A stretch of DNA of 51,511 nucleotides. Source: Faecalibacterium sp. UBA7177 (GTDB taxonomy: Bacteria > Bacillota > Clostridia > Oscillospirales > Ruminococcaceae). This document shows positions 16,775-42,974 of the stretch, in pieces; within the stretch, counting starts at the first letter, position 1, and the number at the start of each line of letters is the position of its first letter. The stretch lies in NCBI GenBank assembly GCA_002491225.1, contig DKVN01000108.1, positions 5,249 to 56,759 on the forward strand, given 5' to 3'. Position numbers and translations under genes: made by a program. The notes beneath the pieces were generated by a model. That model made no database searches and was not told the DNA's origin. It was given only the letters and a program-made list of their open reading frames with translations.

Positions 16775-16894
16775 CCATAGTGCACAGGAAAATAGTGTTT
16801 TAGTTCCATATCAAATTATTTTATTTGATAATACACTATTTAGTGTGATTTGTAAAGTGAATTATCATTTTTTTGTAAGATTAACTACTTTGGA

Positions 16895-16923: not shown

Positions 16924-16961
16924 AACACAATACTATACTGAATGAAAAAGAGGAACGGATC

Positions 16962-17174
16962 ATGGGAATGGCGCTGAAAATACGAACCATTCTGCTGGAG
17001 CGGCATATGACCATCAAAGAACTGGCCGAAAAAATCGGTACAACGGGGAATAACCTGAGCAACAAATTTGCCCGCGATAACCTGTCCGAGAAAGAACTGC
17101 GGGTCATCGCTGACGCGCTGGACTGCGACTACGACGGCATCTTCACCTTTCGGGATACTGGCAAAAAGGTTTGA
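16962..17174 (+). CDS. XRE-family HTH protein (70 aa), paralog 2
   Basis: MGMALKIRTILLERHMTIKELAEKIGTTGNNLSNKF..FRDTGKKV. Roughly half its residues are identical to paralog 1 by eye. AAGAGGAA RBS. Confidence 0.7.
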   Translation: MGMALKIRTILLERHMTIKELAEKIGTTGNNLSNKFARDNLSEKELRVIADALDCDYDGIFTFRDTGKKV

Positions 17175-17286
17175 CCATAACGCTGCGCGGAAGCTGTGCC
17201 TGCCGCGGCGGATCACAACAAAAGCACCCTGTAAGTTTTTACCGCTTACAGGGTGCTTTGCTGTTGATACCGGAACGGGGCGGCCG

Positions 17287-27889: not shown

Positions 27890-27992
27890 CGTGATGGCAT
27901 CCCCCTTTTGTGGTGGTCGTTTGATTTGAATCATATGGCCTTTGGTGCCGCTTGTCAAGGACAAAAACAGCAAGATGGCGTGAGCGGCGCTC

Positions 27993-28021
27993 TTGTGCAA
28001 TCGGGGCCGGTATGCTACAAT
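27993..28021 (+). promoter_or_regulatory. Extended -10 promoter, probably the native ychF promoter, now separated from ychF by the island
   Basis: TTGTGC (27993..27998), 17-nt spacer, TGcTACAAT (28013..28021). Downstream are GAGGAGA and ATGAAATTAGGTATCG (28097), a copy of the ychF start. Confidence 0.55.
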
Positions 28022-28096
28022 GAGCAGGTACATCCACGGTGAAAACCGCAACGATAAACCGAACCACCGACCAGATCGAGGAGACGTGAGAAAACC

Positions 28097-28112
28097 ATGA
28101 AATTAGGTATCG
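28097..28112 (+). repeat. Left copy of the putative att core (ychF start codon region); opens a 12-codon remnant ORF
   Basis: 15 of 16 nt match 41862..41877. Reads MKLGIGVSEPVS-stop (28097..28135). Confidence 0.7.
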
Positions 28113-28241
28113 GCGTATCCGAGCCGGTTTCATAAGGATCTCCGCCTCTGTGATGAAAGCCGCTGACGCTTGAAAACATTGACTTTTATAGAAGACCGGG
28201 CAGAATAAAACCCACCGGTTTTCACTGCGGATCCATACGCC

Positions 28242-28263
28242 AATGGCGTAAAAATGGAGTAGA
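28242..28263 (+). repeat. Perfect 22-bp direct repeat, left copy (partner at 41776..41797)
   Basis: aatggcgtaaaaatggagtaga is present at both island ends, inside the ychF-start repeats. Confidence 0.9.
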
Positions 28264-28320
28264 AAATTTAACGGATTTACAGGGCAAAAAGGCCACCACT
28301 ACACAAGCGAAAATGAACGA

Positions 28321-28354
28321 CAACAGGCATGACTGGCTTTGGTCATGCCTGTTG
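28321..28354. terminator. 13-bp perfect hairpin at the left island end
   Basis: caacaggcatgac (28321..28333), 8-nt loop, gtcatgcctgttg (28342..28354). T-rich tracts follow on both strands. It lies ~150 nt downstream of the last gene of the minus-strand defence block. Confidence 0.6.
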
Positions 28355-28506
28355 CTTTGTTGCCTTTCGGGGAGAATATAGATGAAACCACCTTCGCGCC
28401 GTTTGTTTTTGCTTGTGCGTATTTATGACAAGACTAATAGCTTAAATCCCGTTGGGATAGTTTAGAGCCTCTGGGGTTCTTAATTTAACCATCGAAGTCT
28501 TTTAAC

Positions 28507-28986
28507 TTATACGGATTTTGTCATGGAGTTTATCAAAAAGACCAGTATCAGCCAAATGAAAAAAACATTGACAGCAAATAGAGCGCACGACAATGCGGAT
28601 AAGACTTTTGGTATAATCGCAAGCCAAAATGTACCGTACTGCCATTGAACGAGCATTTCCTGTATTGCTTGAAAGTCCATATCTAGAAGATAGACAGCAC
28701 TGATTGCTATGGTTGCTAAACCGCAAAAACCTGCTATGCGTAAATAGGATGCCAAGACACCCAAACCAGTTTTCGTCTTAATTTCAATATCCCGTTGCCG
28801 CTTTAATTTGTCCGCGAAGTCACTTCCGAGGATGACAGATGCGGCACCGATATACACTGCCAGAGCAATGGAAACTACAGAAATTGCAGCCTCGGATATT
28901 TTTGAATAATCTGCATCCAATAAAAACGCTACAACCAAGATTGTCACAAATATGGAGGCTCCAGCATTTCGATGTCGTTTATACAT
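28507..28986 (-). CDS. Unknown multi-pass membrane protein (159 aa), candidate effector
   Basis: 4-5 hydrophobic segments (SIFVTILVVAFLL; AISVVSIALAVYIGAASVIL; GVLASYLRIAGFCGLATIAISAVYLL; FWLAIIPKVLSALSCALFAVNVFFIWLILVFLI). GAGGAA RBS 6 nt upstream. The ATG lies 2 nt after the upstream stop. Confidence 0.75.
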   Translation of the reverse strand: MYKRHRNAGASIFVTILVVAFLLDADYSKISEAAISVVSIALAVYIGAASVILGSDFADKLKRQRDIEIKTKTGLGVLASYLRIAGFCGLATIAISAVYLLDMDFQAIQEMLVQWQYGTFWLAIIPKVLSALSCALFAVNVFFIWLILVFLINSMTKSV

Positions 28987-28988
28987 GC

Positions 28989-29774
28989 TTACTTCCTCAA
29001 TTCTGCCAACAACAGTTGCTGGATCTCCGGTGGATCATAGTGCTCGTTTTCGTCTTTGCGTGGAAAAATCTCGACACGCTTGATCACGGAAGAGAAGTCG
29101 AAAGTTTGCTCAACGCCAGCATCGTCACACCCGATGATAATGACATCCTCAAATTGGTTCTTGTCCCGATGAAAACGATCAATTAGGGCGCGCCCGGTAT
29201 GTACAGGAATATCGCCATAGGTAATTTTCAGCTGAATTTTTTCAGGAGTGTCCAGTCCCCAGAGGTCTGATACTTGGTTGAAAATATCGCCATTTTGAGA
29301 AAACAGATTGCGAACTTGCGTATATCGGAACCCACGGATAAATTTTACATGATTGCAAAATTCATCAACTGATGCGTAGACATTGTTGATTTCAAATTCT
29401 TTCTGTAGTGCATATGAGAGGTAGTCCTTCAGCGTTTTCCGCCGCGTGAGGTCATTGATATACAGGAAATGTGTATGAGTGTCATAGCACGCAAAAAATT
29501 GTTGCCGAGGCTCCACTTGGCTCTTGTTTCGTGGATTTGGCTCCAATTCGCCGGTATCCTGATTTACCACATAATCGCGAAAACTGACTGCATCATCATA
29601 ATCACATGCCAACCAGAAAAAACGTTCATCAATGACACATGTATCAATGACATACAGATTTTTCTGACCGTCCGGCTGAAACGTTTTGGGTCCTATATCA
29701 CATACTCGCTTTAGGTCATCCAACTCGGCCTCTCTTGTGCCGTCAATACGAAGTAAAAATGTGCCAAATCGCAT
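28989..29774 (-). CDS. Unknown soluble protein (261 aa), no recognisable family
   Basis: ATG at 29774 lies 6 nt after GAGGTG (preferred over the track GTG at 29783) and 29 nt after the hsdR stop. No P-loop, HD, HNH or obvious PD-(D/E)xK motif seen. Non-repetitive, globular-looking sequence. Confidence 0.75.
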   Translation of the reverse strand: MRFGTFLLRIDGTREAELDDLKRVCDIGPKTFQPDGQKNLYVIDTCVIDERFFWLACDYDDAVSFRDYVVNQDTGELEPNPRNKSQVEPRQQFFACYDTHTHFLYINDLTRRKTLKDYLSYALQKEFEINNVYASVDEFCNHVKFIRGFRYTQVRNLFSQNGDIFNQVSDLWGLDTPEKIQLKITYGDIPVHTGRALIDRFHRDKNQFEDVIIIGCDDAGVEQTFDFSSVIKRVEIFPRKDENEHYDPPEIQQLLLAELRK

Positions 29775-29803
29775 GCTATACACCTCGCTCTTTGCTTGGC
29801 CGT

Positions 29804-32800
29804 TTATGAAATATCAAATCCGCCTTCAAGAATAAACCTTCTCAGCATTTGGTCAATCTTCATGTTGATCTGGAATTTCTTGATAGGTTTGCCCTCCATC
29901 ATTTCAAGGAAAGCTTTCGCCTTTTCCTGATCCACGGTTGCCTTCAATGTGTCAAATTTACCAAACTCATTGATATTGGCTTCTGTGATCTTCGACTGCA
30001 TAAAACTACGCAGTATCGTTTCATCAACTCCGATGGCAGTAGAAAAACGATGGATTTGGTCATTTTTAGCACTGGTCATATACTCTGTAATATAATCACG
30101 GAGCGTTCTTCCTTCGTCAACTACCACATCACCGTTCTGGACATCGTGGAGGAAGATGTTTGCATATTTCTGCTCCTCTTGCGTGAGCGTTGCAAACGAC
30201 TTGTGAAGCTCATACAGCACAGCGGCAGTTTCCGCGCCATCCTGCAAAGCCTTGATGTACTTTTTGAACCGAGAGTTCATATAGTTTGCATCAATTACAC
30301 CGGTATTGATTTCCGTCAGGTAGGAGTCGATTTCATACGGCACATCCTCAACACCAGCTCCTCCGCTACCACCGGAGAACAATTCCTTATAACGCAAAGC
30401 AAGAATCAAGTAGGTGGTTTCATCGAAGTGCAGATCAACGGTCACTTTGCTGCCAGCGTTCTTAAATTCATAGGACAGCTTATCCCAAGTGAAGCCCTGT
30501 ATCTTAGCAGCCTCGAGATAGTTGTTAAGCTGTTTAAACAGTTTGGCGAATTGTCCCCGTTCCGCATGATCAACAGGCAGTTTTTCGAAGTTTTCAATTC
30601 CGGCGGCTCGGAAAATTGCCTCTATATCATCAAACAAGTCGTTCATCTTTCCGAGGTTATATTCCAATTTATCTGCAAACAAGCCAAGAGGCTTATCACC
30701 GGAATACAGCTTGAACGCTTCTTCGATGTTTCTCTGCATTGTATACGGCTTACGATAATAACGAATCGTGCCAAAGGGCTTCTCCGGACCGTAGAGGCGG
30801 TTAGTGCGGGAAAATGCCTGAATCAGCTTTTCGTAAACCAAAATCTTATCCAAGTATAGCGTGTTGATCCACTTGGAGTCAAAACCTGTCAGCATCTGAT
30901 CGACAACGATCAGCAAATCGATTTGCTGGTCGGGAGTGTGTTCAATTCCCTTGTACTGTTCTTTGTGTGCCAGACGATAGGAAATGTCCTTTTTGAAGGT
31001 TGCATAAGTCGCCATCTGGAACTTCATACCGTATCTGGTATTGTAATCTTCGATGATTTCAACAATGCCCTCTTCTTTGAAAAGCCCATTGCCATTGTTA
31101 TCGATACTGGGGTCAAACAAAGCGGTAACCTTCAGATTGCCCTTCGCTTTAAACAGCTTATAATACTGGATTGCCTCCGGAATGCTGCTGGTAGCAAAAA
31201 TCGCATGGAACTTGCTGCCATGGCTTAGGGTTGTCCAATTATCCAGAATATCATCCACTACGGCGCACTGATGCTCTTCGCGTTCGTACTGAGAAATAGG
31301 CAGATAATCTTCAATACCTTTCAAATAGTTGCCATCCGCCTGGACATATCCAGCCATCGGCACTTTTGTGTGATCCATATAATGCAGATAGACTTTTTTC
31401 TTTTTAGGATCTGCCAACGCTTCTGCCTCAGTCATTGCCTTAGCTCTTTCAAGTGCAACGGCTTTCCGAAGATCACGCTCTTTGTATGTTGGCACCATGT
31501 ATGGATCAAAGCCCAGGACATTCTTGTCCCGGATGCCGTCTGCAATACTGTACCTGTGCAGCTCATTGCCGAACACATCCGAAGTAGTGCTCATTTTCTT
31601 CTGATTTTCATCATGGATTGGTGTGCCGGTAAAGCCAAAAAACATGGCGTTCGGGAAAGTTGCTTTGATAGTACGCAGCATTTCGCCAAATACATCGCGA
31701 TGAGCTTCATCAATGATGAATACGACCCGTTTGTTCTGGATCAATTCGATGTCGTGCGCATTGAAGCCGTTTTCTTCTTCCACACGGCTCATTTTCTGAA
31801 TGGAGGTGACAATCAACGTGTTTGCGGGGTCATCGCTCCGCAGTTTTGCCACGAGAATATCCGTGTTTTCTGTGGCCTGTACAGAGTCCGTATCGTCAGC
31901 AAACCCGCGATAATCCAACAGGGACTGCGTGCCCAGTTCGACTCTGTCCATCAGGAATACAACCTTGTCGGCATCCTTGGAAGCCGCAATCAACTGTGCG
32001 GATTTGAAGCTGGTCAATGTTTTTCCGGAACCGGTGGTGTGCCAGATGTAGCCGCCCATCTGATCTTTATCAGCCCAACGGCGCATAGCAACGCGGCTGG
32101 TAATACGAGAAGTCGCATAATACTGATAGCTGCGCATAACCTTCAAAATGCCGTCGGTATCATCGGCAACGGTATAGAAGCCGATCAGCTGGTGCGCCAT
32201 AGGGATGGAAAGCAGATACTGTGCAATGTCCTTCCAGTTATTCAATGGCTCATTGTTGGCGTCCGCCCAGTGGAAGTAAAAGTCTTTGTTGAACTTTCCG
32301 TCTGGGCCGGGGTTGGCAAAATAGACCGTTTCATCCGGCTGCATGGCAATAAAAATCTGCACAAGGGAAAACAATCCGGAGAAAACACCCTCGTGTGCAT
32401 ATTTTTCGATCTGGTTGTAGGCTTGGCTGACATCCACACCGCTGCGTTTCAGTTCACAGTGAATCAACGGCATACCGTTGATCAACAGCATAAAGTCGCC
32501 ACGGCGGTTGGGCAAAACAGAGTTTCTTGCCTTGAACACCGGCTGTTCGGCAATCTGATAACGGCTTTGACCGGCGGCGATTTCCTGACGGTCATAGATT
32601 TTCAGACTGACTTCCTTACCAAAATGCAGTTCGTCCGCAGGATTGTCGCGCTTGACAGCAACGGTTTTACCATTGATAAAACCGTTGAGTTTCAGCGGCG
32701 TGCGCAGCCGGGTAATCTGGTCAAGAATCTGCTGCATTTCTCCGTCGGTCAGCGGAACATCGTTCAGCCGATCCACATCCCGGTTGTTTTCAAAGAGGAT

Positions 32801-32926
32801 CTGTTTCCAGTTCTGGATCAGCTCCTCTTCCGTTTTGTAGCGCAGAATTTCCAGCTCCCAGCCATATTTTTCTGTCAGTAAGTTGATAAGCGCCGTTTCA
32901 AAAACAGCTTCCTGTTCAAAAACCAT
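29804..32926 (-). CDS. hsdR: Type I restriction endonuclease, R subunit
   Basis: 1040 aa. HsdR N-terminal nuclease region, SF2 motor motifs (HTTGSGKTLTSF, FIIDEAHRD, FGFTGTP, LTGFDSKWINTLYLDK, QAFSRTNR). CAGGAGG RBS. Confidence 0.95.
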   Translation of the reverse strand: MVFEQEAVFETALINLLTEKYGWELEILRYKTEEELIQNWKQILFENNRDVDRLNDVPLTDGEMQQILDQITRLRTPLKLNGFINGKTVAVKRDNPADELHFGKEVSLKIYDRQEIAAGQSRYQIAEQPVFKARNSVLPNRRGDFMLLINGMPLIHCELKRSGVDVSQAYNQIEKYAHEGVFSGLFSLVQIFIAMQPDETVYFANPGPDGKFNKDFYFHWADANNEPLNNWKDIAQYLLSIPMAHQLIGFYTVADDTDGILKVMRSYQYYATSRITSRVAMRRWADKDQMGGYIWHTTGSGKTLTSFKSAQLIAASKDADKVVFLMDRVELGTQSLLDYRGFADDTDSVQATENTDILVAKLRSDDPANTLIVTSIQKMSRVEEENGFNAHDIELIQNKRVVFIIDEAHRDVFGEMLRTIKATFPNAMFFGFTGTPIHDENQKKMSTTSDVFGNELHRYSIADGIRDKNVLGFDPYMVPTYKERDLRKAVALERAKAMTEAEALADPKKKKVYLHYMDHTKVPMAGYVQADGNYLKGIEDYLPISQYEREEHQCAVVDDILDNWTTLSHGSKFHAIFATSSIPEAIQYYKLFKAKGNLKVTALFDPSIDNNGNGLFKEEGIVEIIEDYNTRYGMKFQMATYATFKKDISYRLAHKEQYKGIEHTPDQQIDLLIVVDQMLTGFDSKWINTLYLDKILVYEKLIQAFSRTNRLYGPEKPFGTIRYYRKPYTMQRNIEEAFKLYSGDKPLGLFADKLEYNLGKMNDLFDDIEAIFRAAGIENFEKLPVDHAERGQFAKLFKQLNNYLEAAKIQGFTWDKLSYEFKNAGSKVTVDLHFDETTYLILALRYKELFSGGSGGAGVEDVPYEIDSYLTEINTGVIDANYMNSRFKKYIKALQDGAETAAVLYELHKSFATLTQEEQKYANIFLHDVQNGDVVVDEGRTLRDYITEYMTSAKNDQIHRFSTAIGVDETILRSFMQSKITEANINEFGKFDTLKATVDQEKAKAFLEMMEGKPIKKFQINMKIDQMLRRFILEGGFDIS

Positions 32927-32941
32927 AGCTTGCCTCCTGTA

Positions 32942-34183
32942 TCAGACAAACATTTTCTCAAGCAGAGCTTTTTTGACAGATTGTAATTTATCAAGCTCTT
33001 GCTGACAAAGAACAATCAAATTCTCGATGTTCTCAAAATACTCTGCAATTCTATCCTGCTCATCCCGCTCGGGCAACTGAATAGTTACGGTTGTATATTC
33101 TTCGTATGAAATATTAAGCAAACCATCCATTCGTGCTCCCGAGGTAACGAGCTTACGTAACTGCTTTTCTGTTTCTTTATTGTTCAAAACCCTGGATACA
33201 AAATAGGGGTTGTGCTCGCTTATAGTAAAACAATGATACACATATGGTATTCTTGCTTCATCCACTTCTAAAGCAAAACACGAACCATACGGACGAAGCT
33301 TTGATGCGCCATGATTATAAGCCAGCTCACCTTTCTTCAAAACGATATACTTAGCAAGGCTTTGTCCAGCATTATTGAACGAGTATCTATCTGATTGATC
33401 AATAAAACCATTTGCCGCTGTTATCATCATAATTGGAGCTTTAGAAGTCTTATCCGTACGGATTATCTCGGAAGCGATATCTTTAAGGAATATAGTTCTC
33501 CATGGTTTATCGAATCCCTTAAAACGCACTTCCGGTACATCTGCACCACCTTTCGGGAACATCTTTTCCAGCATAGAGGCTTTTAGAGCATGGAGTTTTT
33601 CGAGTTTAGATTTACTTTGAACGATTAGTTTTTCCAGATTTGAAAAAATGTTTGTAACAGCTTGTTGTTCGTCGTATTCTGGAAAACATACTGTACCGAG
33701 TAAGACAGCATCATCACCAACGTTAATAGTGTTTTTTGCTCCTTTGCTAACAACAGGGAGCAAATAACCATTTAATCTTTTATCCAGGTTAAAATAGGTT
33801 TGGACAAACGGTGCATATACGGTGTCTTTCGGATGGTATACTGCATACAAGGCGGAAACAATTCCCGGTTTTCCTATGTTCGTTTTTATAATTCCGTAAG
33901 GTTGATATCTAAGAGGAGATTTTGTGTAAACTACATCATCGGTTGATACGACTCCATAATTAGTAAGAGAAGCTCCGGCAAAGCTCTTCCCTTGGTATTC
34001 CATCTGGTTAACAACACCAGCATCTCCGGAGACAGAAAGCACATCCTCTTTTTTGAAAGACTCATCAAAATTTTTGGTCTTTGATGTTTCCAGATAATAG
34101 CTCAATAATGCATTATTCCATTCTTTAGTAAACCGCGATATTCGTATCTGTGGTGCGTTATTTTTCTCTACCATATCATTCAC
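32942..34183 (-). CDS. hsdS: Type I R-M specificity subunit with two target-recognition domains
   Basis: Two variable halves separated and terminated by conserved helices (LEKLIVQSKSKLEKLHALKASMLEKMFP and IENLIVLCQQELDKLQSVKKALLEKMFV). Overlaps the hsdM stop by 8 nt. Confidence 0.9.
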   Translation of the reverse strand: MNDMVEKNNAPQIRISRFTKEWNNALLSYYLETSKTKNFDESFKKEDVLSVSGDAGVVNQMEYQGKSFAGASLTNYGVVSTDDVVYTKSPLRYQPYGIIKTNIGKPGIVSALYAVYHPKDTVYAPFVQTYFNLDKRLNGYLLPVVSKGAKNTINVGDDAVLLGTVCFPEYDEQQAVTNIFSNLEKLIVQSKSKLEKLHALKASMLEKMFPKGGADVPEVRFKGFDKPWRTIFLKDIASEIIRTDKTSKAPIMMITAANGFIDQSDRYSFNNAGQSLAKYIVLKKGELAYNHGASKLRPYGSCFALEVDEARIPYVYHCFTISEHNPYFVSRVLNNKETEKQLRKLVTSGARMDGLLNISYEEYTTVTIQLPERDEQDRIAEYFENIENLIVLCQQELDKLQSVKKALLEKMFV

Positions 34184-36953
34184 CCGTTAAAAGAGACTTG
34201 AATTGCTCCAACCCCTTCATGTCATACTCGTTTCCTGTCAGTTCATCAATCATGGAAGAAAGCGCTTCCTCGGATTTCTGAATCTGCTCGTCCAATTCCA
34301 AATAAGTGACGACATACTTGTCCGCCAACGCCTGTACCGCCTTTTCCAGTGTGTCAATGATTGCCTCCGGCATGGCACGGAGAGACGCGCACAGCGGAAC
34401 AATCCATTTCAGGCGCAGGAGGTCAAGAACCTGCTCATCACTCAGCCCTTCAATGGTTTCTTTGGTTTTCATGTGGAGCGTATAGGATCTTTCCTTGACA
34501 TCCTTTTTGACGGCTTTTTCTTCTGCCATCAGCTTATCGGCACAGACCATCTTCGCCTCAAAGGACTCTTCCGGGAAGGAATATGCCTCGCGCAGCGTTT
34601 TCATATATGCCGCGACTTTGCCCTTGGCATACGGGGCATTTCCATCTACGGACTCCCAGTTCACTTCCTTATGCTCAAAGATATATTGCAGTTTGGCCGC
34701 CTTTCCGGCTTTAGCATCTATCAATGCAACATATCCCTGCAGGGCAGTAAGTTCCGGAGAAGAAATATCTGCATAGATTTCCGCAAGTTTTGCTGCAAAC
34801 TCTTTAGGTACAAATGCAGTATTGTCATCATTCAGGAACTCGCCGCGATCACCCTCATCAATGGAATCTATGATTTCTGTCAGCTCGGCGGCTATTTCGT
34901 CCAATCTGGATTCTTTTGCCTTGAGTGCTTCATAATCTTCCCGCAGAAGCGTAGTCTGCACCAGATCAAAGGGAATGACATGGCCTACCCAGCCGTTCTG
35001 TACTTCTTCTTCCTTATCGTCTTTCTTTTTGATGACCATATTGGGGTCTACCTGCTTTGTGGCGGCAAAACCTTCCGTCTGGATAATTTCAAGATCGGTG
35101 GAAATCATGTTCCACTTGTCATCCAACAGTTGATAAGCCTGATACTTGTCTATCAGAGGAAGCGGTGCAACACGGACAAAGATATTTTGTGTAATGGTAT
35201 CCTCGGCCTTGGAGACATTCAGGTCCATCATTTTTTCGATCAGTTCGCCATCCAGATATGTATCAAAATCCGCGAACGCCGACTGATGTGCTGCAATGAA
35301 CGCTTGCACATCGGCACTGCCTTCGATGGCTTCTTTTATATTTTTAACTGTCAAAGCTGAATATGGGGTTACATCGGTGGCAAACAGAACACTCCTCAGC
35401 TGTGGGAACGCAGTCCAATACTGTTCCAGAAGATCAATTTCATGGTTGGGAATGCCGCCGAACATGGTGGCGTAAATATCCCAAGTTTCTGTCGCTTCGG
35501 ATGAATCGATATAACGGGGAATGTTCAGATTATATCCATTGCGGCGAATCTCTTCCTTGGAGACCAGCCGGGCAAATTTTTCAATACTTTCAGGACGGGC
35601 AGCAACAGCGTCCACAATCCTCTTGATATCGGATGCCATCAGTTTGTTGGTCTTACCAACTTTGGTGAATCCCTTGGAAGCGTCGATAAAAAGCACATCA
35701 GAAGCTTCGCGTTTTTGCCGTAAAACCATAATGATGGTGGGAATGCCCGTGCCATAGAAAATATTTGCGGGCAGTCCGATAATTGCTTCGATGTTGTTAT
35801 TTTCGATCAGATTTCGGCGCATACGCCCCTCGCCTTCGCCCAGTCCATCAGCACCTCCAACAGCATCACCACGGAACAGGACACCATGAGGGAGGACGAT
35901 GGTCATAATACCATCTGGTTTTACATGGTACAGGTCATGAAGCAGGAAGGCATAGTCCGCTTTTCCTTTTGGTGCCATACCATAGCGATAACGGGGATCG
36001 GTTTCCTTGTGAGACGGGTCCCAGTGCTGTGAATAAGGCGGGTTGGAAACCACAGCATCCAGATACAACGGGTTATATGTCTGCGTGACATCATCGTACA
36101 TAGGCCAGTCCTGCTCCAGCGTATCGCCACAGCGAGTGAAGATATTGGCCGGATTGATGCCGCGCATAACAAGATTCATACGGGTCAGATTGTATGTGTT
36201 TTCTTTTAGCTCCTGCGCATAGTACATGATGCTGTCTTTGTTCTTCAGGTACTTGGCAGTACTCTTGCCGATGGTGATCAAAAGAGAGCCGGAACCGCTC
36301 GTAGGATCATATATTTCGATTTTCTCGCGATCCTTCAAGTGATTTGCGACAATCTCGGACATAAGCTGAGACACTTCATGAGGTGTATAGAACTCACCGG
36401 CCTTCTTTCCGGCATTTGCAGCAAAGTTGCTGATTAGATATTCGTAGATGAAGCCCAAAATATCATAGTCCTGTCTGCCGTCGGTGGGAATATCCTTGAT
36501 CAGCTGAATCAAATCGCGGATAGCTTTTGTCTGATTGCTGGTGCTGTCACCGAGTTTGCTCAGACCAGTTTCCAGTGTATTAAAGATTTTGCTGAACACC
36601 TTTTTCTGCGTATCGCTGATTAAACGATTGAATGCAGAGAGAGCGGTTCTCACATTGTCAACGGTAAAGCTATTTCCCTTATCCAGCCATGTCGAGAAAA
36701 GATTATCATAGGCGATGAAATATCCCAGATGCTGCTGACAATAATCAACAAGTTCCTCGTTGTTTTCATGTACATGTTCCTGGAGGTCAGCTTCTTCATA
36801 TCCGTCCTTTTTTAGAAAATTCACTTCTTTGTCAGAGAGAAACTTATAGAAGATAAAACCGAGAATGTAGTCTTTATATTCGTTAGCCTCAATTTTGGAA
36901 CGCATTTTATTTGCGGATTCCCAGATTTTATTGGCAAGCTGTTGTTTGTTCAT
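34176..36953 (-). CDS. hsdM: Type I R-M methyltransferase subunit with a long C-terminal extension (925 aa)
   Basis: HsdM_N start (LANKIWESANKMRSKIEANEYKDYILGFIFYKFLSD), AdoMet motif (YDPTSGSGSLL), catalytic VVSNPPYS, NLNIPRYID. ATG at 36953 lies 7 nt after AAAGGAG. The track start at 37046 was rejected. Confidence 0.93.
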   Translation of the reverse strand: MNKQQLANKIWESANKMRSKIEANEYKDYILGFIFYKFLSDKEVNFLKKDGYEEADLQEHVHENNEELVDYCQQHLGYFIAYDNLFSTWLDKGNSFTVDNVRTALSAFNRLISDTQKKVFSKIFNTLETGLSKLGDSTSNQTKAIRDLIQLIKDIPTDGRQDYDILGFIYEYLISNFAANAGKKAGEFYTPHEVSQLMSEIVANHLKDREKIEIYDPTSGSGSLLITIGKSTAKYLKNKDSIMYYAQELKENTYNLTRMNLVMRGINPANIFTRCGDTLEQDWPMYDDVTQTYNPLYLDAVVSNPPYSQHWDPSHKETDPRYRYGMAPKGKADYAFLLHDLYHVKPDGIMTIVLPHGVLFRGDAVGGADGLGEGEGRMRRNLIENNNIEAIIGLPANIFYGTGIPTIIMVLRQKREASDVLFIDASKGFTKVGKTNKLMASDIKRIVDAVAARPESIEKFARLVSKEEIRRNGYNLNIPRYIDSSEATETWDIYATMFGGIPNHEIDLLEQYWTAFPQLRSVLFATDVTPYSALTVKNIKEAIEGSADVQAFIAAHQSAFADFDTYLDGELIEKMMDLNVSKAEDTITQNIFVRVAPLPLIDKYQAYQLLDDKWNMISTDLEIIQTEGFAATKQVDPNMVIKKKDDKEEEVQNGWVGHVIPFDLVQTTLLREDYEALKAKESRLDEIAAELTEIIDSIDEGDRGEFLNDDNTAFVPKEFAAKLAEIYADISSPELTALQGYVALIDAKAGKAAKLQYIFEHKEVNWESVDGNAPYAKGKVAAYMKTLREAYSFPEESFEAKMVCADKLMAEEKAVKKDVKERSYTLHMKTKETIEGLSDEQVLDLLRLKWIVPLCASLRAMPEAIIDTLEKAVQALADKYVVTYLELDEQIQKSEEALSSMIDELTGNEYDMKGLEQFKSLLTGE

Positions 36954-37097
36954 GATCACTGCTCCTTTGTAGAATGCTGTCGTAGTCTGTCGAAAAGACG
37001 ATTTAGGAAGCGTTGTAAACCAAGGGGTTAGTACGCCCATTCGCACCCCTGAGGTGGAACCTGCTCCACAATTTCGAGTTGGGGTCGCTGATAATAA

Positions 37098-37922
37098 TTA
37101 CCCGACCAAGGTCCTCACAGCATCCATAATCTGCTCGTAGGTAATATCCTGCGCGTAAGCGAACTGCTTGCGGTATTTATCCCACATGGCGCGGAGTTCC
37201 GGGCTTTCTTCGATGTTGTGCAGTATTCCGGGGACATCTGCGATCTGCTCTGCAGTGCCGCGATGCTTGGCCGTTGCACTCAGCGCCTCAGCAAACACAG
37301 CTTTATCAAATTTCTGTGTTGTGGTCAGTATGTAGGCATCATAAAAATCTCTGGGGCGGGTATTGAACACACCGCGCCGCAGGATGGTTTCCACTTTTTC
37401 CGCCATGACGGTTTCAATGTTATACGCCCACAGTTCGTAGGACTTCTCATCATCAAAAATCTCGGAGAAGTTGTACTGCACCGCGTGAGGCGTGATGGCA
37501 TCGCCGGTGGACACATCAATACTCATCGGAGTCAGCATAGTGTCGAACCGGGCCTTCAGCATGACGCGGTAGCCGCCGTAAATGTCATCCTCTCGGATGG
37601 GCGATATGGTCCCGATTTCAAATACCACGCCGTCGTCAAGAGGAATTGCACAAATCTGCTCCAACGCACTGCGGATCGCATCCGGTGTGAGGGGCAGGTT
37701 TTTCAATGTGGTGTCCAAGTCCATCGTTGCCCGGTTGTCCAGACCGACGATGGCCGCCACCAGCATACCGCCCTTCAAAACAAACTTCTCTTTGTATTCA
37801 GAGGCGGACAAGCGCACCAGCAAACGCTCGAACATATAGTTCTGCAGAATGACCTGTGCCGGAATATTCTTCTGTTTTGCGATGTTGCGGATCTTCGCTT
37901 TCAGACTCATTGCTTTGCTCAC
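37098..37922 (-). CDS. abiEii: AbiEii/AbiGii-family nucleotidyltransferase toxin (DUF1814)
   Basis: SLKAKIRNIAKQKNIPAQVILQNYMFERLLVRLS..FVLKGGMLV..ATMDLD is typical of AbiEii. Its GTG start overlaps the abiEi stop (GTGA). Confidence 0.85.
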   Translation of the reverse strand: MSKAMSLKAKIRNIAKQKNIPAQVILQNYMFERLLVRLSASEYKEKFVLKGGMLVAAIVGLDNRATMDLDTTLKNLPLTPDAIRSALEQICAIPLDDGVVFEIGTISPIREDDIYGGYRVMLKARFDTMLTPMSIDVSTGDAITPHAVQYNFSEIFDDEKSYELWAYNIETVMAEKVETILRRGVFNTRPRDFYDAYILTTTQKFDKAVFAEALSATAKHRGTAEQIADVPGILHNIEESPELRAMWDKYRKQFAYAQDITYEQIMDAVRTLVG

Positions 37923-38512
37923 AGAAGCACCTCCAAATACTGCCGCAGGACATTTGCCACGCGCATTTTCTTCGCATAAGAGTGAAGTTTATTCAAATCC
38001 TTTTTAGGGCTGGCGGCGTAGAGCTTCAAAGCGGCAAGAAATGTTTCCGTACCGACTTTGTTGCGGCTGCGGATCATGTCGCAGATTGTGCGCTCAAGGT
38101 CATACACCGGCACTTCGTTTCCGGCAGGTGTGTTCAGTGTAGTCCGGCCAAGATCAAACAACTCTGGTTTGATGTAATAGACCTTGCACTCGTTCTTGAT
38201 TGCTGCCGATACCGTGTAATCGGACGGCACCGTGATCGTATGCTCAAAGGGTGTCCGATCCGAAATGCCATGAAGGAACAGGGCGGTTTCGTGGGAAAGA
38301 ATGATCTGATTGGAACGCTTGCTGATGGACAACAGCTCATCCTGCATATCGTCAGGAAGAATGTACTGTCCCTGAACGATTCTATGAATTTTATCTTCTC
38401 TGCACAGTTTATAAAGCATAGCTTTAGAGATGCCGTGCGCTATGGCAGTTTTCGTTTCAATGATGCCGCCATGTTCCTGAGCAATGGCGGCAAGCTCGGC
38501 CATGTAATCCAT
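37919..38512 (-). CDS. abiEi: AbiEi-family antitoxin / transcriptional regulator
   Basis: N-terminal wHTH pattern GGIIETKTAIAHGISKAMLYKLCREDKIHRIVQGQYILPDD. ATG at 38512 after GAGGTG. The track start at 38572 was rejected. Confidence 0.8.
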   Translation of the reverse strand: MDYMAELAAIAQEHGGIIETKTAIAHGISKAMLYKLCREDKIHRIVQGQYILPDDMQDELLSISKRSNQIILSHETALFLHGISDRTPFEHTITVPSDYTVSAAIKNECKVYYIKPELFDLGRTTLNTPAGNEVPVYDLERTICDMIRSRNKVGTETFLAALKLYAASPKKDLNKLHSYAKKMRVANVLRQYLEVLL

Positions 38513-38543
38513 TTCGATCACCTCACGATACCAACTCAAAGAT

Positions 38544-38572
38544 ATTATAGACAATTTCGTTGTCAAAGTCAA
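38544..38572 (-). promoter_or_regulatory. Consensus sigma-70 promoter for abiEi-abiEii
   Basis: On the minus strand: TTGACT (38572..38567), 17-nt spacer, TATAAT (38549..38544). It lies ~30 nt upstream of the abiEi ATG. Confidence 0.7.
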
Positions 38573-38628
38573 CAGAGCAAGAAAACTTTTGCTATGAAAC
38601 TAATTACGATTTCGTTATCAAAGTAAAC
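38554..38628 (-). promoter_or_regulatory. Two 20-bp direct repeats (18 of 20 identical), candidate AbiEi operators
   Basis: atttcgttgtcaaagtcaac (38554..38573) and atttcgttatcaaagtaaac (38609..38628) have starts 55 bp apart. The proximal copy covers the -35 box and spacer of the abiE promoter. Confidence 0.6.
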
Positions 38629-38778
38629 ATTATAAGGGCTTGGGATATTCCCAAAATCTCCGAGTGTACGGACACCGGATTTGCTTGCTATTCTCTAAAA
38701 AACTGAATCATCTTCGTTATCACGCGCTCTCGATTTCAAAACCGAGGGTGCTTTTTATTTTCAAAATGGGGGAATTGA

Positions 38779-39117
38779 ATGATGAAAAATCGTACCAGAC
38801 CAGTCCGCATTGAGTTCCGTGTCACCGAGCAGGAACGTCAACTAATCCAGAAAAAGATGGAGCAGCTTGGCACCAAAAACATGGGAGCCTATCTTCGCAA
38901 GATGGCGATTGACGGCTACATCATCAAGGTGGATTACACCGAGCAGAAAAAGCTGGCCGCTGCCGTCAGCAACGCGGCTGCTAACATCAATCACATCTGC
39001 CGCCGTATCAATCAGACCGGGCGATTCTATGCAGACGATGTTGCCGAGCTGAAAGCCAGACAAGCCGAGATCTGGCAGCTGCTGAAACAGAGCCAGAAAG
39101 ATGAAATTCCGCCATAA
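38779..39117 (+). CDS. mobC: MobC-family relaxosome accessory protein
   Basis: RIEFRVTEQERQLIQKKMEQLG..YLRKMAIDGYI and LAAAVSNAAANINHICRRINQTG match the MobC pattern (ribbon-helix-helix plus NxNQ-type helix). Confidence 0.8.
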   Translation: MMKNRTRPVRIEFRVTEQERQLIQKKMEQLGTKNMGAYLRKMAIDGYIIKVDYTEQKKLAAAVSNAAANINHICRRINQTGRFYADDVAELKARQAEIWQLLKQSQKDEIPP

Positions 39118-39119
39118 CG

Positions 39120-39223
39120 GGATTTTCCGTGTGTGGATTTTCCGTCACCGGATTTTCAGACGATGGATAATCTGACACTCCGGAGCGTTCCGTGATTGGA
39201 TTTCTGGACATCGGTTTTTGGAA
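39120..39223 (+). repeat. Iteron-like array with a 15-bp period
   Basis: GGATTTTCCGT at 39120 and 39135. Degenerate copies at 39150 (ggattttcaga), 39165 (ggataatctga), 39198 (ggatttctgga) and 39213 (ggtttttggaa). Followed by the AT-rich tract taataaataagaaataaataaa (39251..39272). Confidence 0.75.
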
Positions 39224-39340
39224 CGGCCACCGGGGATGAAATTCAGTCCCTAATAAATAAGAAATAAATAAACTCTCAAGAGAATCATCCATCAATCCAA
39301 TCAATACCGGATTAGATAGGATGGATGGGATGGAGGCGTT

Positions 39341-39724
39341 ATGAAAAGTTTTTACAAGTTTACTGTGAAAAGCCCGGCGGCTTCTTACATACCGCTGCCA
39401 CGATTTCTGCTGCAGGATGAACAGCTGCGGGGCATCAGCAACGATGCCAAGGTGTTATATGCGCTCCTGCTGGACAGAGCAAGCGTATCCCGGCAAAACG
39501 GATATGTTGAGCCGGATGGGACGATTCGTCTGTACTTTACGCTGGAACAGGCGCAGAAGAAGCTGCACCGCAGCCGACAGTGTGCTACCCGGATTTTCCG
39601 CGAGCTGGAATACAGCGGCCTGATCAATCGAAAGAAGCAAGGGCTTGGCAAACCGGCGGTTATCACGCTGAACTACCCGGCAGACGCCAAGCTCATCACG
39701 AAGGAGGAAACCGATGAAAAGTGA
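39341..39724 (+). CDS. Replication initiator protein A N-terminal domain (RepA_N) protein
   Basis: YIPLPRFLLQDEQLRGISNDAKVLYALLLDRASVSRQNGYVEPDGTIRLYFTLEQAQKKL..TRIFRELEYSGLINRKKQGLGKP is the RepA_N signature. Confidence 0.75.
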   Translation: MKSFYKFTVKSPAASYIPLPRFLLQDEQLRGISNDAKVLYALLLDRASVSRQNGYVEPDGTIRLYFTLEQAQKKLHRSRQCATRIFRELEYSGLINRKKQGLGKPAVITLNYPADAKLITKEETDEK

Positions 39725-40109
39725 AGTTACAAATACGAAATACCCGGCGAATACGCTGCCGCGGCTCACCCCCGGACAAGCCCGAAGTGTCCGAAGACTC
39801 ACCAGCCAATGCTGCAACAACGACAATGGAAACTGCCTTTTGCTGGACGATGGCGATCCCTGCGTCTGTCCGCAGACAATATCCTACAGTCTGATCTGCA
39901 AGCACTTCCGGCGCGGAGTTCTCCCGCTGGAGCCGGAATTGGAGGACGCGATCCTCCGTCCCAAAGGGAACCGCCGCTGCAAGGTCTGCGGTGCATACTT
40001 TATGGCCGGTTCCGGACGAGCTAAATACTGTGCGGAATGTGCCGCCGAAGTACACCGAAAGCAAAAGGCAGCACACGCCCGAAAAAAGAGGTCGGGCGTA
40101 GACAATTAA
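39714..40109 (+). CDS. Cysteine-rich VLP-domain protein
   Basis: CCNNDNGNCLLLDDGDPCVCPQ..LICKHF..VLP..CKVCGAYF..YCAECAAEV matches the Cys_rich_VLP pattern common in clostridial integrative elements. Confidence 0.7.
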   Translation: MKSEVTNTKYPANTLPRLTPGQARSVRRLTSQCCNNDNGNCLLLDDGDPCVCPQTISYSLICKHFRRGVLPLEPELEDAILRPKGNRRCKVCGAYFMAGSGRAKYCAECAAEVHRKQKAAHARKKRSGVDN

Positions 40110-40240
40110 CCCCTCGCAAACCCTTTGTATACAAGGCTTTCCAAAAGCCACTTTTCAAGAGTGCGTGTGTTTTTACTTACCCCCTGAAAAAACCGATTCA
40201 AACCGTCTACGTTTTTTGATTGATGAAAGGAGTCAAAACC

Positions 40241-40450
40241 ATGGAAAACAATAAGATCGAAAGAGTTCCCATTCACCTCAAGCTGGCCCTCACCTCCAAG
40301 GAGGCCGCCGAGTACAGCAACATCGGTATCAACAAGATCGACAGTATGCTCCGCGCTCCCAAGTGCCCCTTCGTCCTGTTCGTTGGTACGAAGAAGCTGG
40401 TCAAGCGCAAGGAGTTTGAGCAGTACATCAGCTCCAAACTGGTGATCTGA
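40241..40450 (+). CDS. xis: Excisionase-type HTH DNA-binding protein
   Basis: 69 aa. LTSKEAAEYSNIGINKIDSML..VGTKKLVKRKEFEQYI (HTH_17/excisionase-like). ATG at 40241 lies 8 nt after GAAAGGAG. Sits immediately upstream of int. Confidence 0.7.
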   Translation: MENNKIERVPIHLKLALTSKEAAEYSNIGINKIDSMLRAPKCPFVLFVGTKKLVKRKEFEQYISSKLVI

Positions 40451-40569
40451 GCGAAAAACGGCGATACGCTACAAGAAGTTTTCAAATTCACCTTGAGAGA
40501 AAGAGCACATTGTGATATACTTAAAGTGTAGTGGTGTGCTCTTTTCTCTCTGGGGAAAGGAGTTCATAC

Positions 40570-41751
40570 ATGGGAAAGAATCTCAAAGGCAGAGAATGCG
40601 GTAAGGGTATCTACCAGAGGAAGGACGGATTGTACAGCGCCCGGTTCGTAGACAGAGCCGGTAAGCGGCACGAGAAATACTTCCAGACGGTTCCCGAAGC
40701 AAGAAACTGGATCGCGGATGCAAAGTATGCGGATGCACACGCGGAGGTTTTTGTCGGCACCGATATTACGGTGGATGAGTGGTTTGATTTCTGGATCGAG
40801 AATATTGTCGGAGATTTGGCTCCCAATACGCTCCGCAACTACCGTGACAGATACAAACACAACATCCAGCCGGTGATCGGCAGGATAAAACTTACGGATG
40901 TGAAACCCATGCACTGCAAAAAGGTATTCATCGAAATGGATGCCGATTATTCCGGCTCCACCATCCGTCAGGCGTACATCACCATGGGGACGATGCTGAA
41001 AGCGGCGAAGATGAACGATCTCATCTCCAAGCATCCCATGGACGGTGTTCGATTTACCAAGCCTGTCCGTGCGGCAAACGACATCAAGTTCCTCACCCGC
41101 GAAGAACAGCGTATCTTTCTGGAAACGGCCAGACGCTCTCATAATTATAACCAATATGCGCTGATCCTCGAAACGGGACTGCGCACCGGCGAGCTGATCG
41201 GCCTGACATGGGATGCCGTTGACTTCGAGAAACGGACGCTGACGGTGAACAAAACGCTGGAGTTCCGGCACGGTACAAAATCGTGGCGGGCGGGGCCTCC
41301 CAAAACGCCCAACAGCTATCGTACCATTCCGCTGACAGACACGGCCTATGGTATTCTCCGTGAAGTGTGGGACAGCCGGGAAGAACGAAAATCTTCTCCT
41401 GTGCTGGAACAGACTTTGGAGTACATGGATCGTCGAAGCGGCAGCATGGCAAAGCTGGTGATGCGTGATCTGGTCTTTATCAACTGGCGCACCGGAGAAC
41501 CGGCAAAGAACAGCTCCTATGACACCCACCTCTACAAGCTCTGCGACGAAGCAGGGATACCCCGCTTTTGTATGCATGCGCTGCGCCACACCTATGCTAC
41601 GCGGGCGATTGAGAGCGGTATGCAGCCCAAGGTGCTGCAAAAGCTGCTGGGACACGGCAGCATCAAAACCACCATGGATCGGTACGTCCATGTGACCACC
41701 GAATCTCTGGACCAAGCGGTACGGCAATTTGAAATGAATGGGGTTATCTGA
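40570..41751 (+). CDS. int: Tyrosine site-specific integrase with an N-terminal arm-binding-type domain
   Basis: N-terminus [26 protein letters not shown]. Catalytic residues in [44 protein letters not shown] at 40570 after GGAAAGGAG. Confidence 0.93.
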
Positions 41752-41775
41752 ATGAGAGCCGCGGTTCTGCACCAA

Positions 41776-41797
41776 AATGGCGTAAAAATGGAGTAGA
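41776..41797 (+). repeat. Perfect 22-bp direct repeat, right copy (partner at 28242..28263)
   Basis: aatggcgtaaaaatggagtaga, 25 nt after the int stop. Confidence 0.9.
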
Positions 41798-41861
41798 CAC
41801 CGAAGACCCCAAACCCGGAAACCCTTGAAAATACAGAGAAAACAAAGGAGAATGAAGATAT

Positions 41862-41877
41862 ATGAAATTAGGCATCG
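41862..41877 (+). repeat. Right copy of the putative att core, which is the functional ychF start
   Basis: ATGAAATTAGGCATCG. It differs from the left copy only at a synonymous Gly codon position. Confidence 0.7.
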
Positions 41878-42974
41878 TCGGGCTGCCCAACGTGGGCAAG
41901 AGCACCCTGTTCAACGCCATCACCAGCACCAAAAACGCGGCGGCGGCCAACTATCCCTTCTGCACCATCGACCCCAACACCGGCATCGTCCCGGTGCCGG
42001 ACGCGCGGCTGGACAAGCTGGCCGACATCTGGCAGACCAACAAAAAAACGCCCGCCATCGTCGAGTTTGTCGATATCGCGGGCCTTGTCAAGGGGGCCTC
42101 CAAGGGCGAGGGGCTGGGCAACAAGTTCCTGGGAAACATCCGGGAGTGCGATGCCATCGTGCATGTGGTGCGCTGCTTTGAGGGCACCGACGTGGTGCAC
42201 GTCGAGGGCGCGGTGGACCCGCTGCGGGACATCGAGACGATCGACACCGAGCTGATTTTGAGCGACCTCGAGGTGGTGTCGAACCGCGCCGCCAAGTTTG
42301 CCAAGGCGGCCAAGACCGGGGACAAAAAGGCCGCCCCCGCCGCCGCGATGCTCGCCGCGCTCGAGGAGCACCTCGGCCGCGGCGAGAACGCCCGCACCTT
42401 TACGCCGGAGGACGACTCGGACGAGAACCTCGCCCTGCTGCGGGAGATGGGCCTTTTGAGCGGCAAGCCGATCATCTACGCCGCCAACCTCAGCGAGGAC
42501 GACCTGATGGACGGCATGGAGCAGAACCCCCACTACCAGGCGGTGCGGGCCCTGGCCGAAAAGGAGGGGGCCGAGTGCATCCCCATCTGCGCCAAGACCG
42601 AGGAGGACATCGCCGACTACCCCCCCGAGGAAAAGCGGGCCTTTCTGGCCGAGATGGGCATCGAGGCCACCGGCCTCGACAACCTCATCCAGGCCAGCTA
42701 CCACCTGTTGGGCCTGATCAGCTTTTTGACCGACGGCAAAAAGGAGTGCCGCGCCTGGACCATCCGCCGCGGCACCAGGGCCCCGCAGGCCGCCGGCAAG
42801 ATCCACTCGGATTTTGAGCGCGGCTTCATCCGGGCCAGCGTGGTGGCCTACGAGGACTTTGCCGCCTGCGATTACAGCATGGCCGCCGTCAAGGCCAAGG
42901 GCCTGCAGCGCACCGAGGGCAAGGAGTATGTGGTGCAGGACGGGGATATCATCGAGTTCTTGTTCAATGTGTAA
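41862..42974 (+). CDS. ychF: Redox-regulated ribosome-binding ATPase YchF
   Basis: [54 protein letters not shown]-terminal TGS-like domain ([12 protein letters not shown]). Confidence 0.97.

Follow-up and report, generated by a model that had tools for sequence, protein, structure and literature searches.

Architecture of the ychF Locus

The stretch of DNA analyzed here, 51,511 nucleotides of contig DKVN01000108.1 from Faecalibacterium sp. UBA7177 (in the following, the window), carries an island at the very start of the gene ychF. The island, 13,765 bp in size, lies between two 16-mers that both read as the beginning of this gene. An earlier interpretation made from the letters alone (the sequence-only reading) had described them as direct repeats matching at 15 of 16 positions and as a duplication of the ychF start. 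Both repeats were recovered, ATGAAATTAGGTATCG at 28097–28112 and ATGAAATTAGGCATCG at 41862–41877, and they differ at position 12 only (T versus C). They are the sole copies in the window: ATGAAATTAGGYATCG, searched with at most one mismatch, gave two matches in the 51.5 kb, with none expected from 100 shuffles.

The right copy (+ strand) is the working start, as it opens an intact ychF coding for 370 amino acids (aa; 41862–42974, +; Pfam PF01926 (MMR_HSR1) and PF06071 (YchF-GTPase_C)). It constitutes the core of the right attachment site attR, with a host-derived C at position 12. The left copy (+) is the core of attL, in which the host start codon is fused to the left end of the element and the T at position 12 is element-derived. 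It leads into an orphan open reading frame (ORF) of only 12 codons, MKLGIGVSEPVS followed by a stop (28097–28135, +), behind the native ychF Shine-Dalgarno (SD) sequence GAGGAGA (28078–28084, +). The true start on the right and the early stop on the left had both been correctly recognized before, the latter being read directly from the sequence. Further upstream, the putative native promoter of ychF, TTGTGC-17-TGcTACAAT (27993–28021, +), precedes the orphan ORF and is now parted from its gene by the island. It had been called a good promoter, which holds in part. The TGcTACAAT element upstream of ychF is kept in the two empty sites described below (L004 and L189; L numbers denote contigs and loci), but the consensus promoter scan missed the site and its −35 hexamer matches at only 3 of 6 positions.

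Between the two copies the GC content falls sharply, in agreement with the sequence-only reading, to 0.466 (28113–41861) in comparison to 0.674 in the left and 0.688 in the right flank. The outermost segments of the island, 28113–28241 and 41798–41861, show island-like values of 0.48 and 0.45. Scanning the window for RNA genes revealed no Rfam family and no tRNA, so the site is not of the tRNA type and the ychF leader contains no known riboswitch.

The genes for excision and integration, xis and int, together occupy one end of the element and point outwards, towards ychF. The integrase (Int; 393 aa; 40570–41751, +) is a tyrosine recombinase of the Tn916/Tn1549 class. Its catalytic domain (R...HxxR...H/W...Y) matches PF00589 above the gathering score (E = 6.8e-28), and PF14659 is matched as well. 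Among solved structures, entry 6EN0 (‘Int protein’, the Tn1549 integrase) is the best relative (E = 2.5e-19). When aligned with the 6EN0 chain, Int displays LRtgEl among the catalytic signature segments, and the catalytic region gives a clear match but not a close one. The excisionase (Xis; 69 aa; 40241–40450, +) is of the Tn916-Xis type (PF09035, E = 6.7e-33).

Two minor features were observed in the vicinity of the left junction. A strong promoter-like TTGACA-17-TATGAT (11/12 matches; 27930–27958, −) is located upstream of a divergent DUF2264/BcGHD gene and stands back to back with the ychF promoter. An inverted repeat in the island-left region (28032–28048 and 28216–28232; I20) is taken as a chance occurrence, since 137 pairs of this kind occur within 16 kb.

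Empty Sites and Crossover

The exact YchF sequence of the window was found on four contigs, three of which were inspected as loci, and all three carry the island. The leftmost island protein (159 aa) occurs with its exact sequence in 116 blocks of the assembly collection, and in all ten places shown it adjoins the same left-flank gene, which codes for the DUF2264/BcGHD glycoside-hydrolase-like protein. While an exact look-up of the left-flank protein yielded one contig, a 96%-identical cluster representative of it led to L189 (Logan SRR19621106), the only contig of this representative. L189 is an island-free site of the same species.

In L189 the native promoter, the SD, ATGAAATTAGGCATCGTCGGG and ychF follow each other in that order, the SD being identical to that of the window. 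Upstream of the ATG, it differs from window positions 27697–28096 by 2 mismatches in 400 nt; from the ATG onwards it is identical to positions 41862–41975 (114/114). A second island-free locus, L004, stems from a sister species (a mouse-gut Oscillospiraceae metagenome-assembled genome (MAG), YchF 95% identical); its only ychF start follows a TGcTACAAT element and an SD homologous to those of the window. The reconstructed empty site matches L004 with 89.9% identity over 158 nt, starting 18 nt upstream of the ATG, and the island ends gave no significant match there (best E = 0.49). Thus, the arrangement of promoter, ribosome-binding site, core and ychF that had been predicted for the empty site is found exactly so in L189 and in the same form in L004. 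Each of the two loci has one ychF start, so that the duplication is confined to occupied sites, as foreseen; the segments 28113–28241 and 41798–41861 are absent from both.

Comparison of the junctions narrows down the crossover. The sites read ...GAGAAAACC-ATGAAATTAGG-C-ATCG-T-CGGGCTG for attB (L189), ...GAGAAAACC-ATGAAATTAGG-T-ATCG-G-CGTATCC for attL and ...GAAGATAT-ATGAAATTAGG-C-ATCG-T-CGGGCTG for attR of the window. They differ by parental single-nucleotide polymorphisms only and contain no foreign coupling bases, the window set being the only one that can be compared in this way. From these sequences, attP of the element is predicted to read ...GAAGATAT-ATGAAATTAGG-T-ATCG-G-CGTATCC. A joined form would be expected to contain ...GAAGATAT-ATGAAATTAGGTATCG-GCGTATCC... 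or, more widely, ...GGAGAATGAAGATAT-ATGAAATTAGGTATCG-GCGTATCCGAGCC..., and the repaired attB would read ...GAGAAAACC-ATGAAATTAGGCATCGTCGGG.... Since position 12 is T at attL and C at both attR and attB, the exchange lies 5' of this position, within the 11 nt ATGAAATTAGG.

Several comparisons among relatives agree with this assignment. Position 12 of attL is T in all 11 same-species contigs compared (one contig was fetched twice), and nearly all cores preceding element left ends carry T there as well. Among elements with identical right end, positions 12, 15 and 18 of attR vary by host, and positions 1–11 are almost invariant. At core position 9, a base other than A occurs in 1 of 77 occupied and 18 of 69 empty sites; C at position 7 was observed in 4 of 77 and 20 of 69, respectively. 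This enrichment of the canonical core fits sequence-specific targeting, with the occupied and empty samples also differing phylogenetically. Less easily reconciled are the left junctions of L126 and L157, which exhibit non-canonical bases at positions 12–15. Such odd bases, like those at attR of L003 and of two relatives (see below), possibly result from a lineage-specific attP, from host polymorphism or from heteroduplex resolution.

In left ends of different lineages we also noted the motif GAGCC/GACC...TTTCATA about 8–25 nt after the core (window 28113–28140, L112, L146, L150, L153, L157 and L175). The orphan 12-codon ORF of the window terminates at the TAA of this motif, which could be a protein-binding site.

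The 22-bp Repeat

A second direct repeat, AATGGCGTAAAAATGGAGTAGA, is present at 28242–28263 and 41776–41797 within a 37-nt repeat of 81% identity. Both copies (+) are composed of the tandem 11-mers AATGGCGTAA-AAATGGAGTAGA, the left one 130 nt after the core and the right one 86 nt before the ychF ATG. Judged by this layout, the tandem 11-mers are probable arm-type sites of a heterobivalent integrase, to which Int would bind. Paired repeats at comparable offsets, +124 to +127 and −87 to −91, were found in L126, L175 and L179, the relatives in which both arms could be read: in L126 at opposite ends of a single element, in L175 and L179 on either side of a right-end/left-end junction. The repeat sequence changes with the element lineage (AAATGGCGTAA, AAATGGTGTAA, AAATGGTGCGG, AATTGGTGCGG, GGTACAG and AAAGGGCGTAA), and arm pairs of the type AAATGGCGTAA/AAATGGAGTAG occur. 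In the window, the unusual second arm unit GGAGTAG is present in both arms. The assignment as arm sites fits the Tn916-type Xis, the match to 6EN0 and a weak N-terminal match of Int to PF02920.

The sequence-only reading had raised this repeat as a possible alternative junction. In that case the 22-bp (or 37-nt) repeat would be the true att site, and the duplicated ychF start would be incidental or an older feature of the host. The repeat is indeed real, it is the longest direct repeat around the island (22/22 identical) and it adjoins int. As a crossover site it is nevertheless ruled out by the empty sites: L189 and L004 hold one ychF start, no copy of the repeat is found around the L189 junction, and the sole match in L004 has 3 mismatches, lies ~9 kb downstream of the ychF start and is at chance level. 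The segments between core and repeat on either side are island-like in GC content and, as stated above, missing from both loci. In relatives, the repeats always stand ~125–130 and ~86–90 nt on either side of the core, and in contigs that join a right end to a left end they flank the 16-mer in the layout of arm sites. We therefore regard the repeat as an extremely improbable att site and retain the ychF start as the place of integration, with the 22-bp copies as its probable arms.

Distribution of the Family at ychF

The YchF scan covered 80 species-representative genomes, one per species. Homologues of int and xis with 65–82% identity are located directly upstream of ychF in nine of them; two more int fragments and two cut contigs with element-like right ends were detected in addition. 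The occupied genomes belong to Anaerofilum sp., Gemmiger sp. An50, Faecalibacterium hattorii, a second Faecalibacterium sp., Ruminococcus sp., a MAG labelled Lachnospiraceae and several unclassified Clostridia MAGs. In L050, a truncated contig of an Acutalibacteraceae MAG, the end of int is found directly upstream of ychF. A scan of metagenomes for Int gave 80 loci with 80–100% identity; most of those with enough downstream sequence have ychF about 115 nt after int. Dozens of genomes and metagenome contigs hence show the same int/xis pair beside ychF. A search for this pair had been proposed as a check of the sequence-only reading; like the checks of the empty site and of the joined ends, it came out in favour of that reading. 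Overall, 77 occupied loci from Oscillospirales were collected (Int 65–100% identical). The 70 loci with enough of ychF fall into 53 ychF clusters at 95% nucleotide identity, so that at least 53 host ychF types are represented, and their YchF proteins are 57–100% identical to that of the window.

The element has spread horizontally. In L109, an Int 99.75% identical to that of the window and an identical right end stand beside a YchF of 59% identity, and in L111 an Int of 97.5% identity adjoins a YchF of 63%. A near-identical Int beside so distant a YchF as in L109 indicates that the element of the window has moved recently between distant hosts.

The layout is also present in an isolate. Vescimonas fastidiosa MM35 carries excisionase, integrase and ychF with the same arrangement of arm repeats and SD. 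The locus (L192/L193, NZ_AP023417.1 136216–138964) belongs to a 142-kb record labelled plasmid, and its arms are of the type AAATGGTGCGG x2. No second copy of core or arm was found within 43 kb upstream; either the MM35 element is very large or it has lost attL. The genes upstream include those for a lambda exonuclease, a RecD-like helicase, an AcrIIA9-family protein, PcfJ and LigA. Similarly, L009 (Gemmiger sp. An50) and L017 (F. hattorii) show no second core in the 10-kb flank, their elements being longer than that.

About a dozen contigs join an element right end, the 16-mer and an element left end (for example L112:2415, L113:3245, L149:1362, L152:4088 and L150:2613–11127). The interval in L150 spans 8.5 kb and has GGTACAG arms at its left end and AAATGGCGTAA arms at its right end. 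In some of these junctions the arm repeats differ across the 16-mer; those particular junctions represent tandem or hybrid arrays of different elements.

Two further contigs deviate from the common pattern. In L110 (11293–11913), a window-type right end (Int 99.3%) with the 16-mer abuts the 3' end of a convergent gene for 204 aa, the stop codon of which is supplied by the reverse complement of the core. This may be a secondary attachment site. In L117 (675–1880), an Int of 90% identity is followed by unrelated high-GC sequence without the ychF-start core, which may reflect a rearranged or chimeric contig or a different target.

Expression of ychF in the Occupied Site

In the occupied site, ychF is preceded by an SD supplied by the element, AAGGAGA (41845–41851, +). 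An SD of the AGGA/GGAG type at a fixed distance from the ATG occurs in 76 of the 77 right ends, and this distance equals the unusually long spacing found in native ychF leaders of the clade. The earlier proposal that the element mimics the ychF translation-initiation region gains support from this finding. The bases of the SD region could also be part of Int recognition.

With regard to transcription, the 73 int-ychF spacers scanned are all free of terminator-like hairpins, which makes co-transcription of ychF with int probable. A candidate driver of such a transcript is the promoter-like TTGAGA-17-TG-TATACT with extended −10 just upstream of int (40493–40521, +; 10/12 matches). On the other side of the element, 7 of 13 left ends examined carry a terminator with a stem of 13–15 bp at +188 to +210 from the core. 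The window is among them; here the terminator scan placed an intrinsic terminator with a 15-bp stem facing the displaced ychF promoter (28321–28364, +). Comparison of right ends further revealed a AAACCCTTGAAAAT box (41819–41832, +) that is kept in many lineages. Its spacing to the SD is not conserved, which makes it an unlikely −35 element for ychF.

The promoter scan also offered TTGAAA (41825–41830) as ychF −35 (TTGAAA-17-GAGAAT). This candidate was rejected: its −10 overlaps the SD, and the spacing from TTGAAA to the SD ranges from 3 to 18 nt.

That the native promoter is insulated and ychF co-transcribed with int is the least secure part of the model. A more far-reaching proposal is that the element takes over the expression of ychF, so that YchF, a conserved ATPase associated with translation and stress, would in the integrated state be produced solely from an int-ychF transcript with the SD of the element, the native promoter being parked behind a terminator. 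We hold this to be possible but less likely than not. If it is true, the host's need for YchF would be tied to transcription through int, a ‘hostage’ situation stabilizing both the island and int expression, and in many gut Oscillospirales ychF regulation would be switched reversibly by excision and integration.

Proposed Mechanism and Alternative Explanations

Taken together, the island is very probably a site-specific defence element resembling integrative and mobilizable elements (IMEs), moved by Int and Xis and integrated at the ychF start in such a way that the YchF protein is unchanged and its gene is most likely transcribed from the element. In this mechanism, the element would be moved by Int, as a heterobivalent tyrosine recombinase of the Tn916/Tn1549 class, together with the Tn916-type Xis. 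Its attP would comprise the core ATGAAATTAGGTATCG and tandem 11-bp arm sites, about 86 nt away on the int side and about 130 nt on the other. Int would recombine the attP core with attB, that is, the ychF start codon and the first five codons, strand exchange falling within the first 11 nt ATGAAATTAGG. Since the SD of the right end stands at the native distance and the core re-creates codons 1–5, the frame and protein of ychF remain as before. The gene is cut off from its own promoter and most likely transcribed by read-through from int. At attL, the native promoter, SD and first five codons stay behind and would drive only the 12-codon ORF until the transcript is stopped by the strong terminator of the element.

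A number of observations weigh against this picture. The N-terminal residues 1–71 of Int match PF02920 (Tn916 Integrase_DNA) with E = 0.019 and 15.4 bits only, the cut-off being 27. Neither a relaxase nor a coupling protein nor an origin of transfer (oriT) was identified on the island, and the element offers no demonstrated ychF promoter. Furthermore, no circular contig was found. A search for an excised form had been proposed in the sequence-only reading, and contigs connecting right end, 16-mer and left end do exist, but none of 14 junction contigs shows a terminal overlap; the remaining junctions may therefore be tandem arrays rather than excised attP. Finally, L003 of the same species has T instead of C at attR position 12, attR positions 6–7 are sometimes non-canonical in other elements, and two relatives read AAGCTAGG at attR. 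Because of the T in L003 and these non-canonical bases, the cleavage positions are bounded rather than mapped.

The same integration system could also serve a phage satellite or a phage-related island that spreads in phage particles. Several findings point in this direction, namely relatives in IMG/VR (L095–L101), the satellite nature of the known ychF-adjacent elements of Streptococcus pneumoniae (PMC8637289, PMC10383233), the match of the RepA_N protein to PHROG families of DnaD-like helicase loaders and of the Cys_rich_VLP protein to a PHROG of unknown function, and the lack of a relaxase on the island. Against a satellite, the element encodes a relaxosome accessory protein of the NikA/MobC type, the Int/Xis pair belongs to the class of the conjugative transposons Tn916/Tn1549, and the closest Int among 50,697 phage records is only 34% identical. 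Genes for capsid, terminase, packaging, lysis or a phage repressor and satellite hallmark genes were not found with Pfam, PHROGs and NCBIfam. A phage-borne island is on this evidence unlikely.

Much less probable still is a decayed and immobile relic that became fixed in the species, the repeats being mere scars. It would account for the inspected contigs with exact YchF all being occupied, for the leftmost protein in 116 blocks and at this site in ten of ten places, and for an excised form going undetected among the junction contigs. It is at odds with the empty site L189 in the same species, with the intact state of int, xis, both arm sites and both cores, and with a near-identical int and right end in hosts whose YchF is 59–63% identical (L109, L111). 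An element that is, or recently was, mobile through Int and Xis at the ychF start thus remains the preferred explanation, and its transfer from cell to cell may follow the mode of IMEs.

Relation to Known Elements

The module for integration resembles that of Tn916 and Tn1549: the Int class is shared, a Tn916-type Xis lies beside int, and both genes are placed at one end. Repeated arm-type sites are present in Tn916 roughly 90–150 bp inside the ends, and the arm repeats of the window element are a further likeness in this respect. For Tn916, Int and Xis are reported to bind at or near both ends (PMC5812530). Tn916 requires no homology, prefers AT-rich targets and leaves heteroduplex coupling sequences (PMC5812530), whereas the ychF family uses one fixed 16-bp site, with 77 of 77 occupied loci at the ychF start, and the window junctions contain no foreign coupling bases. 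In addition, the window element lacks conjugation genes: an assignment of every island ORF of 50 aa or more yielded no component of a type IV secretion system, no type IV coupling protein and no relaxase.

Similar to IMEs of Firmicutes, the element is small and combines an Int/Xis module with a MobC/NikA accessory gene, a gene of the replication type and cargo. Its target is a conserved housekeeping gene whose end it restores, and tandem accretions form at the site. A site-specific module for integration and excision, att repeats, an empty site and horizontal transfer between hosts are all found. It differs from IMEs in that neither relaxase nor oriT was recognized, and around the NikA/MobC gene no convincing inverted repeat indicative of an oriT was observed. 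The element is best described as an IME-like site-specific defence island with an accessory module of the mobilization type and without conjugation machinery. As a target of IMEs, ychF is not listed in the searchable literature.

In the sequence-only reading, insertion at the 5' end of ychF was considered unusual. This was overstated, as pneumococcal satellite prophages and pipolins already use ychF, and Firmicute elements are known to insert at the 5' ends of genes. The gene is a recurrent landing site in Firmicutes (PMC8637289, PMC10383233), and the pneumococcal satellite prophages have their attB in its promoter (PMC6375853, PMC8637289, PMC10383233). In the case of PPH005/PhiBM6001.4 (Chen et al. 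2019), which sits between dnaN and ychF, the integrated prophage reduces expression of ychF, which recovers upon excision (PMC6375853). There, too, int adjoins ychF and integration separates the gene from part of its promoter. The attB CCCTTTTTGTGTTA, contained in a 26-bp site, is intergenic, overlaps the −35 and lies outside the coding sequence, whereas the crossover in the window falls into the start codon region and the element replaces both SD and promoter. The pneumococcal element is moreover phage-related and has a Streptococcus host. For pipolins, ychF has been reported as an integration gene for defence-carrying islands (PMC11551731). Those that use it have large serine recombinases and a primer-independent PolB, both of which are absent from the window element.

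A functional parallel is offered by SpyCIM1 in mutL, reportedly a regulatory insertion at a gene 5' end of the ‘active lysogeny’ kind, to which PMC6375853 refers. Shared features are the insertion at the 5' end of a housekeeping gene, its uncoupling from the promoter and reversible excision. SpyCI silences the downstream gene while integrated; in contrast, the SD and the lack of a terminator in the ychF family suggest that expression is kept.

Literature searches combining ychF with IMEs, attB or genomic islands returned the pneumococcal and pipolin cases only, and no report was found in which a Tn916-class integrase family of Oscillospirales has the ychF start codon as its target. The island is a mobile element of an ordinary type, whose target is well defined and apparently undocumented. 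The first 16 nt of ychF emerge as a widespread integration hotspot in Faecalibacterium, Gemmiger, Ruminococcus, Vescimonas, Anaerofilum and Acutalibacteraceae, at which one integrase family shuttles defence cargo (Type I restriction-modification (R-M) and AbiE) between distant hosts and builds tandem arrays. In practical terms, the integrase with its short conserved attB and arm sites is a candidate landing-pad system for gut anaerobes in which genetic engineering is difficult, and the int-ychF arrangement provides a testable model in which a mobile element rewires how a conserved housekeeping gene is expressed. The hotspot also accounts for frequent breaks of MAG contigs at ychF. For annotation, the orphan 12-codon start at attL should not be called a gene.

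Cargo and Further Features of the Island

The gene content named in the sequence-only reading, comprising int, xis, Cys-rich VLP, RepA_N, MobC, AbiE, Type I R-M and two proteins left without assignment, is in agreement with Pfam and PADLOC. From the left end, the latter two are a membrane-like protein of 159 aa (28507–28986, −) and a protein of 264 aa (28989–29783, −), both without family match; the longer one has a 62% identical homologue in the element of Gemmiger sp. An50. They are followed by a complete Type I system with the restriction subunit HsdR (29804–32926, −; PADLOC REase_I, E = 1.4e-148, and Pfam domains), the specificity subunit HsdS (32942–34183, −; Specificity_I, E = 4.8e-74) and the methyltransferase HsdM (34176–36953, −; 925 aa as called in relatives; MTase_I, 1239 bits). 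The second defence system consists of the AbiEii toxin, a nucleotidyltransferase (37098–37922, −; PF08843, E = 4.8e-46; PADLOC, E = 1.5e-104), and the antitoxin and regulator AbiEi of 197 aa (37919–38512, −; PADLOC, E = 1.8e-72).

The remaining genes are oriented towards ychF. The NikA/MobC-like relaxosome accessory protein is encoded at 38779–39117 (+; PF21983, E = 1.1e-14; PF05713, E = 6.2e-06). It is followed by a RepA_N-domain protein of 127 aa (39341–39724, +; PF06970, E = 2.7e-20; PHROG DnaD-like helicase loader) and the Cys_rich_VLP protein (39714–40109, +; PF14194, E = 1.6e-23); a literature search for ‘Cys_rich_VLP’ returned nothing. Between the NikA/MobC-like and RepA_N genes, three iteron-like direct repeats GGATTTTC can be read (39120–39157, +), which hint at transient replication of the excised form, or at an origin therein.

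Outside the island, a second, smaller dip in GC content to 0.48–0.51, compared to about 0.67 for the genome, was observed at window positions 16000–17500. The region contains short ORFs only and has no tRNA or Rfam match. A further small insertion or AT-rich intergenic DNA could explain the dip.

Among near-identical copies of the island (L084–L093), the length of hsdS varies between 296, 381, 387, 402, 404 and 413 aa, which suggests shuffling of the target-recognition domains. In L001 (1–5200; same species, Logan SRR17406717), the part from AbiE to int is kept and attR is the same, and hsdM is cut after ~199 aa and followed by a PemK toxin, PNP_UDP_1 and many small ORFs instead of hsdS and hsdR. 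As judged from this contig, the island cargo turns over within the species.

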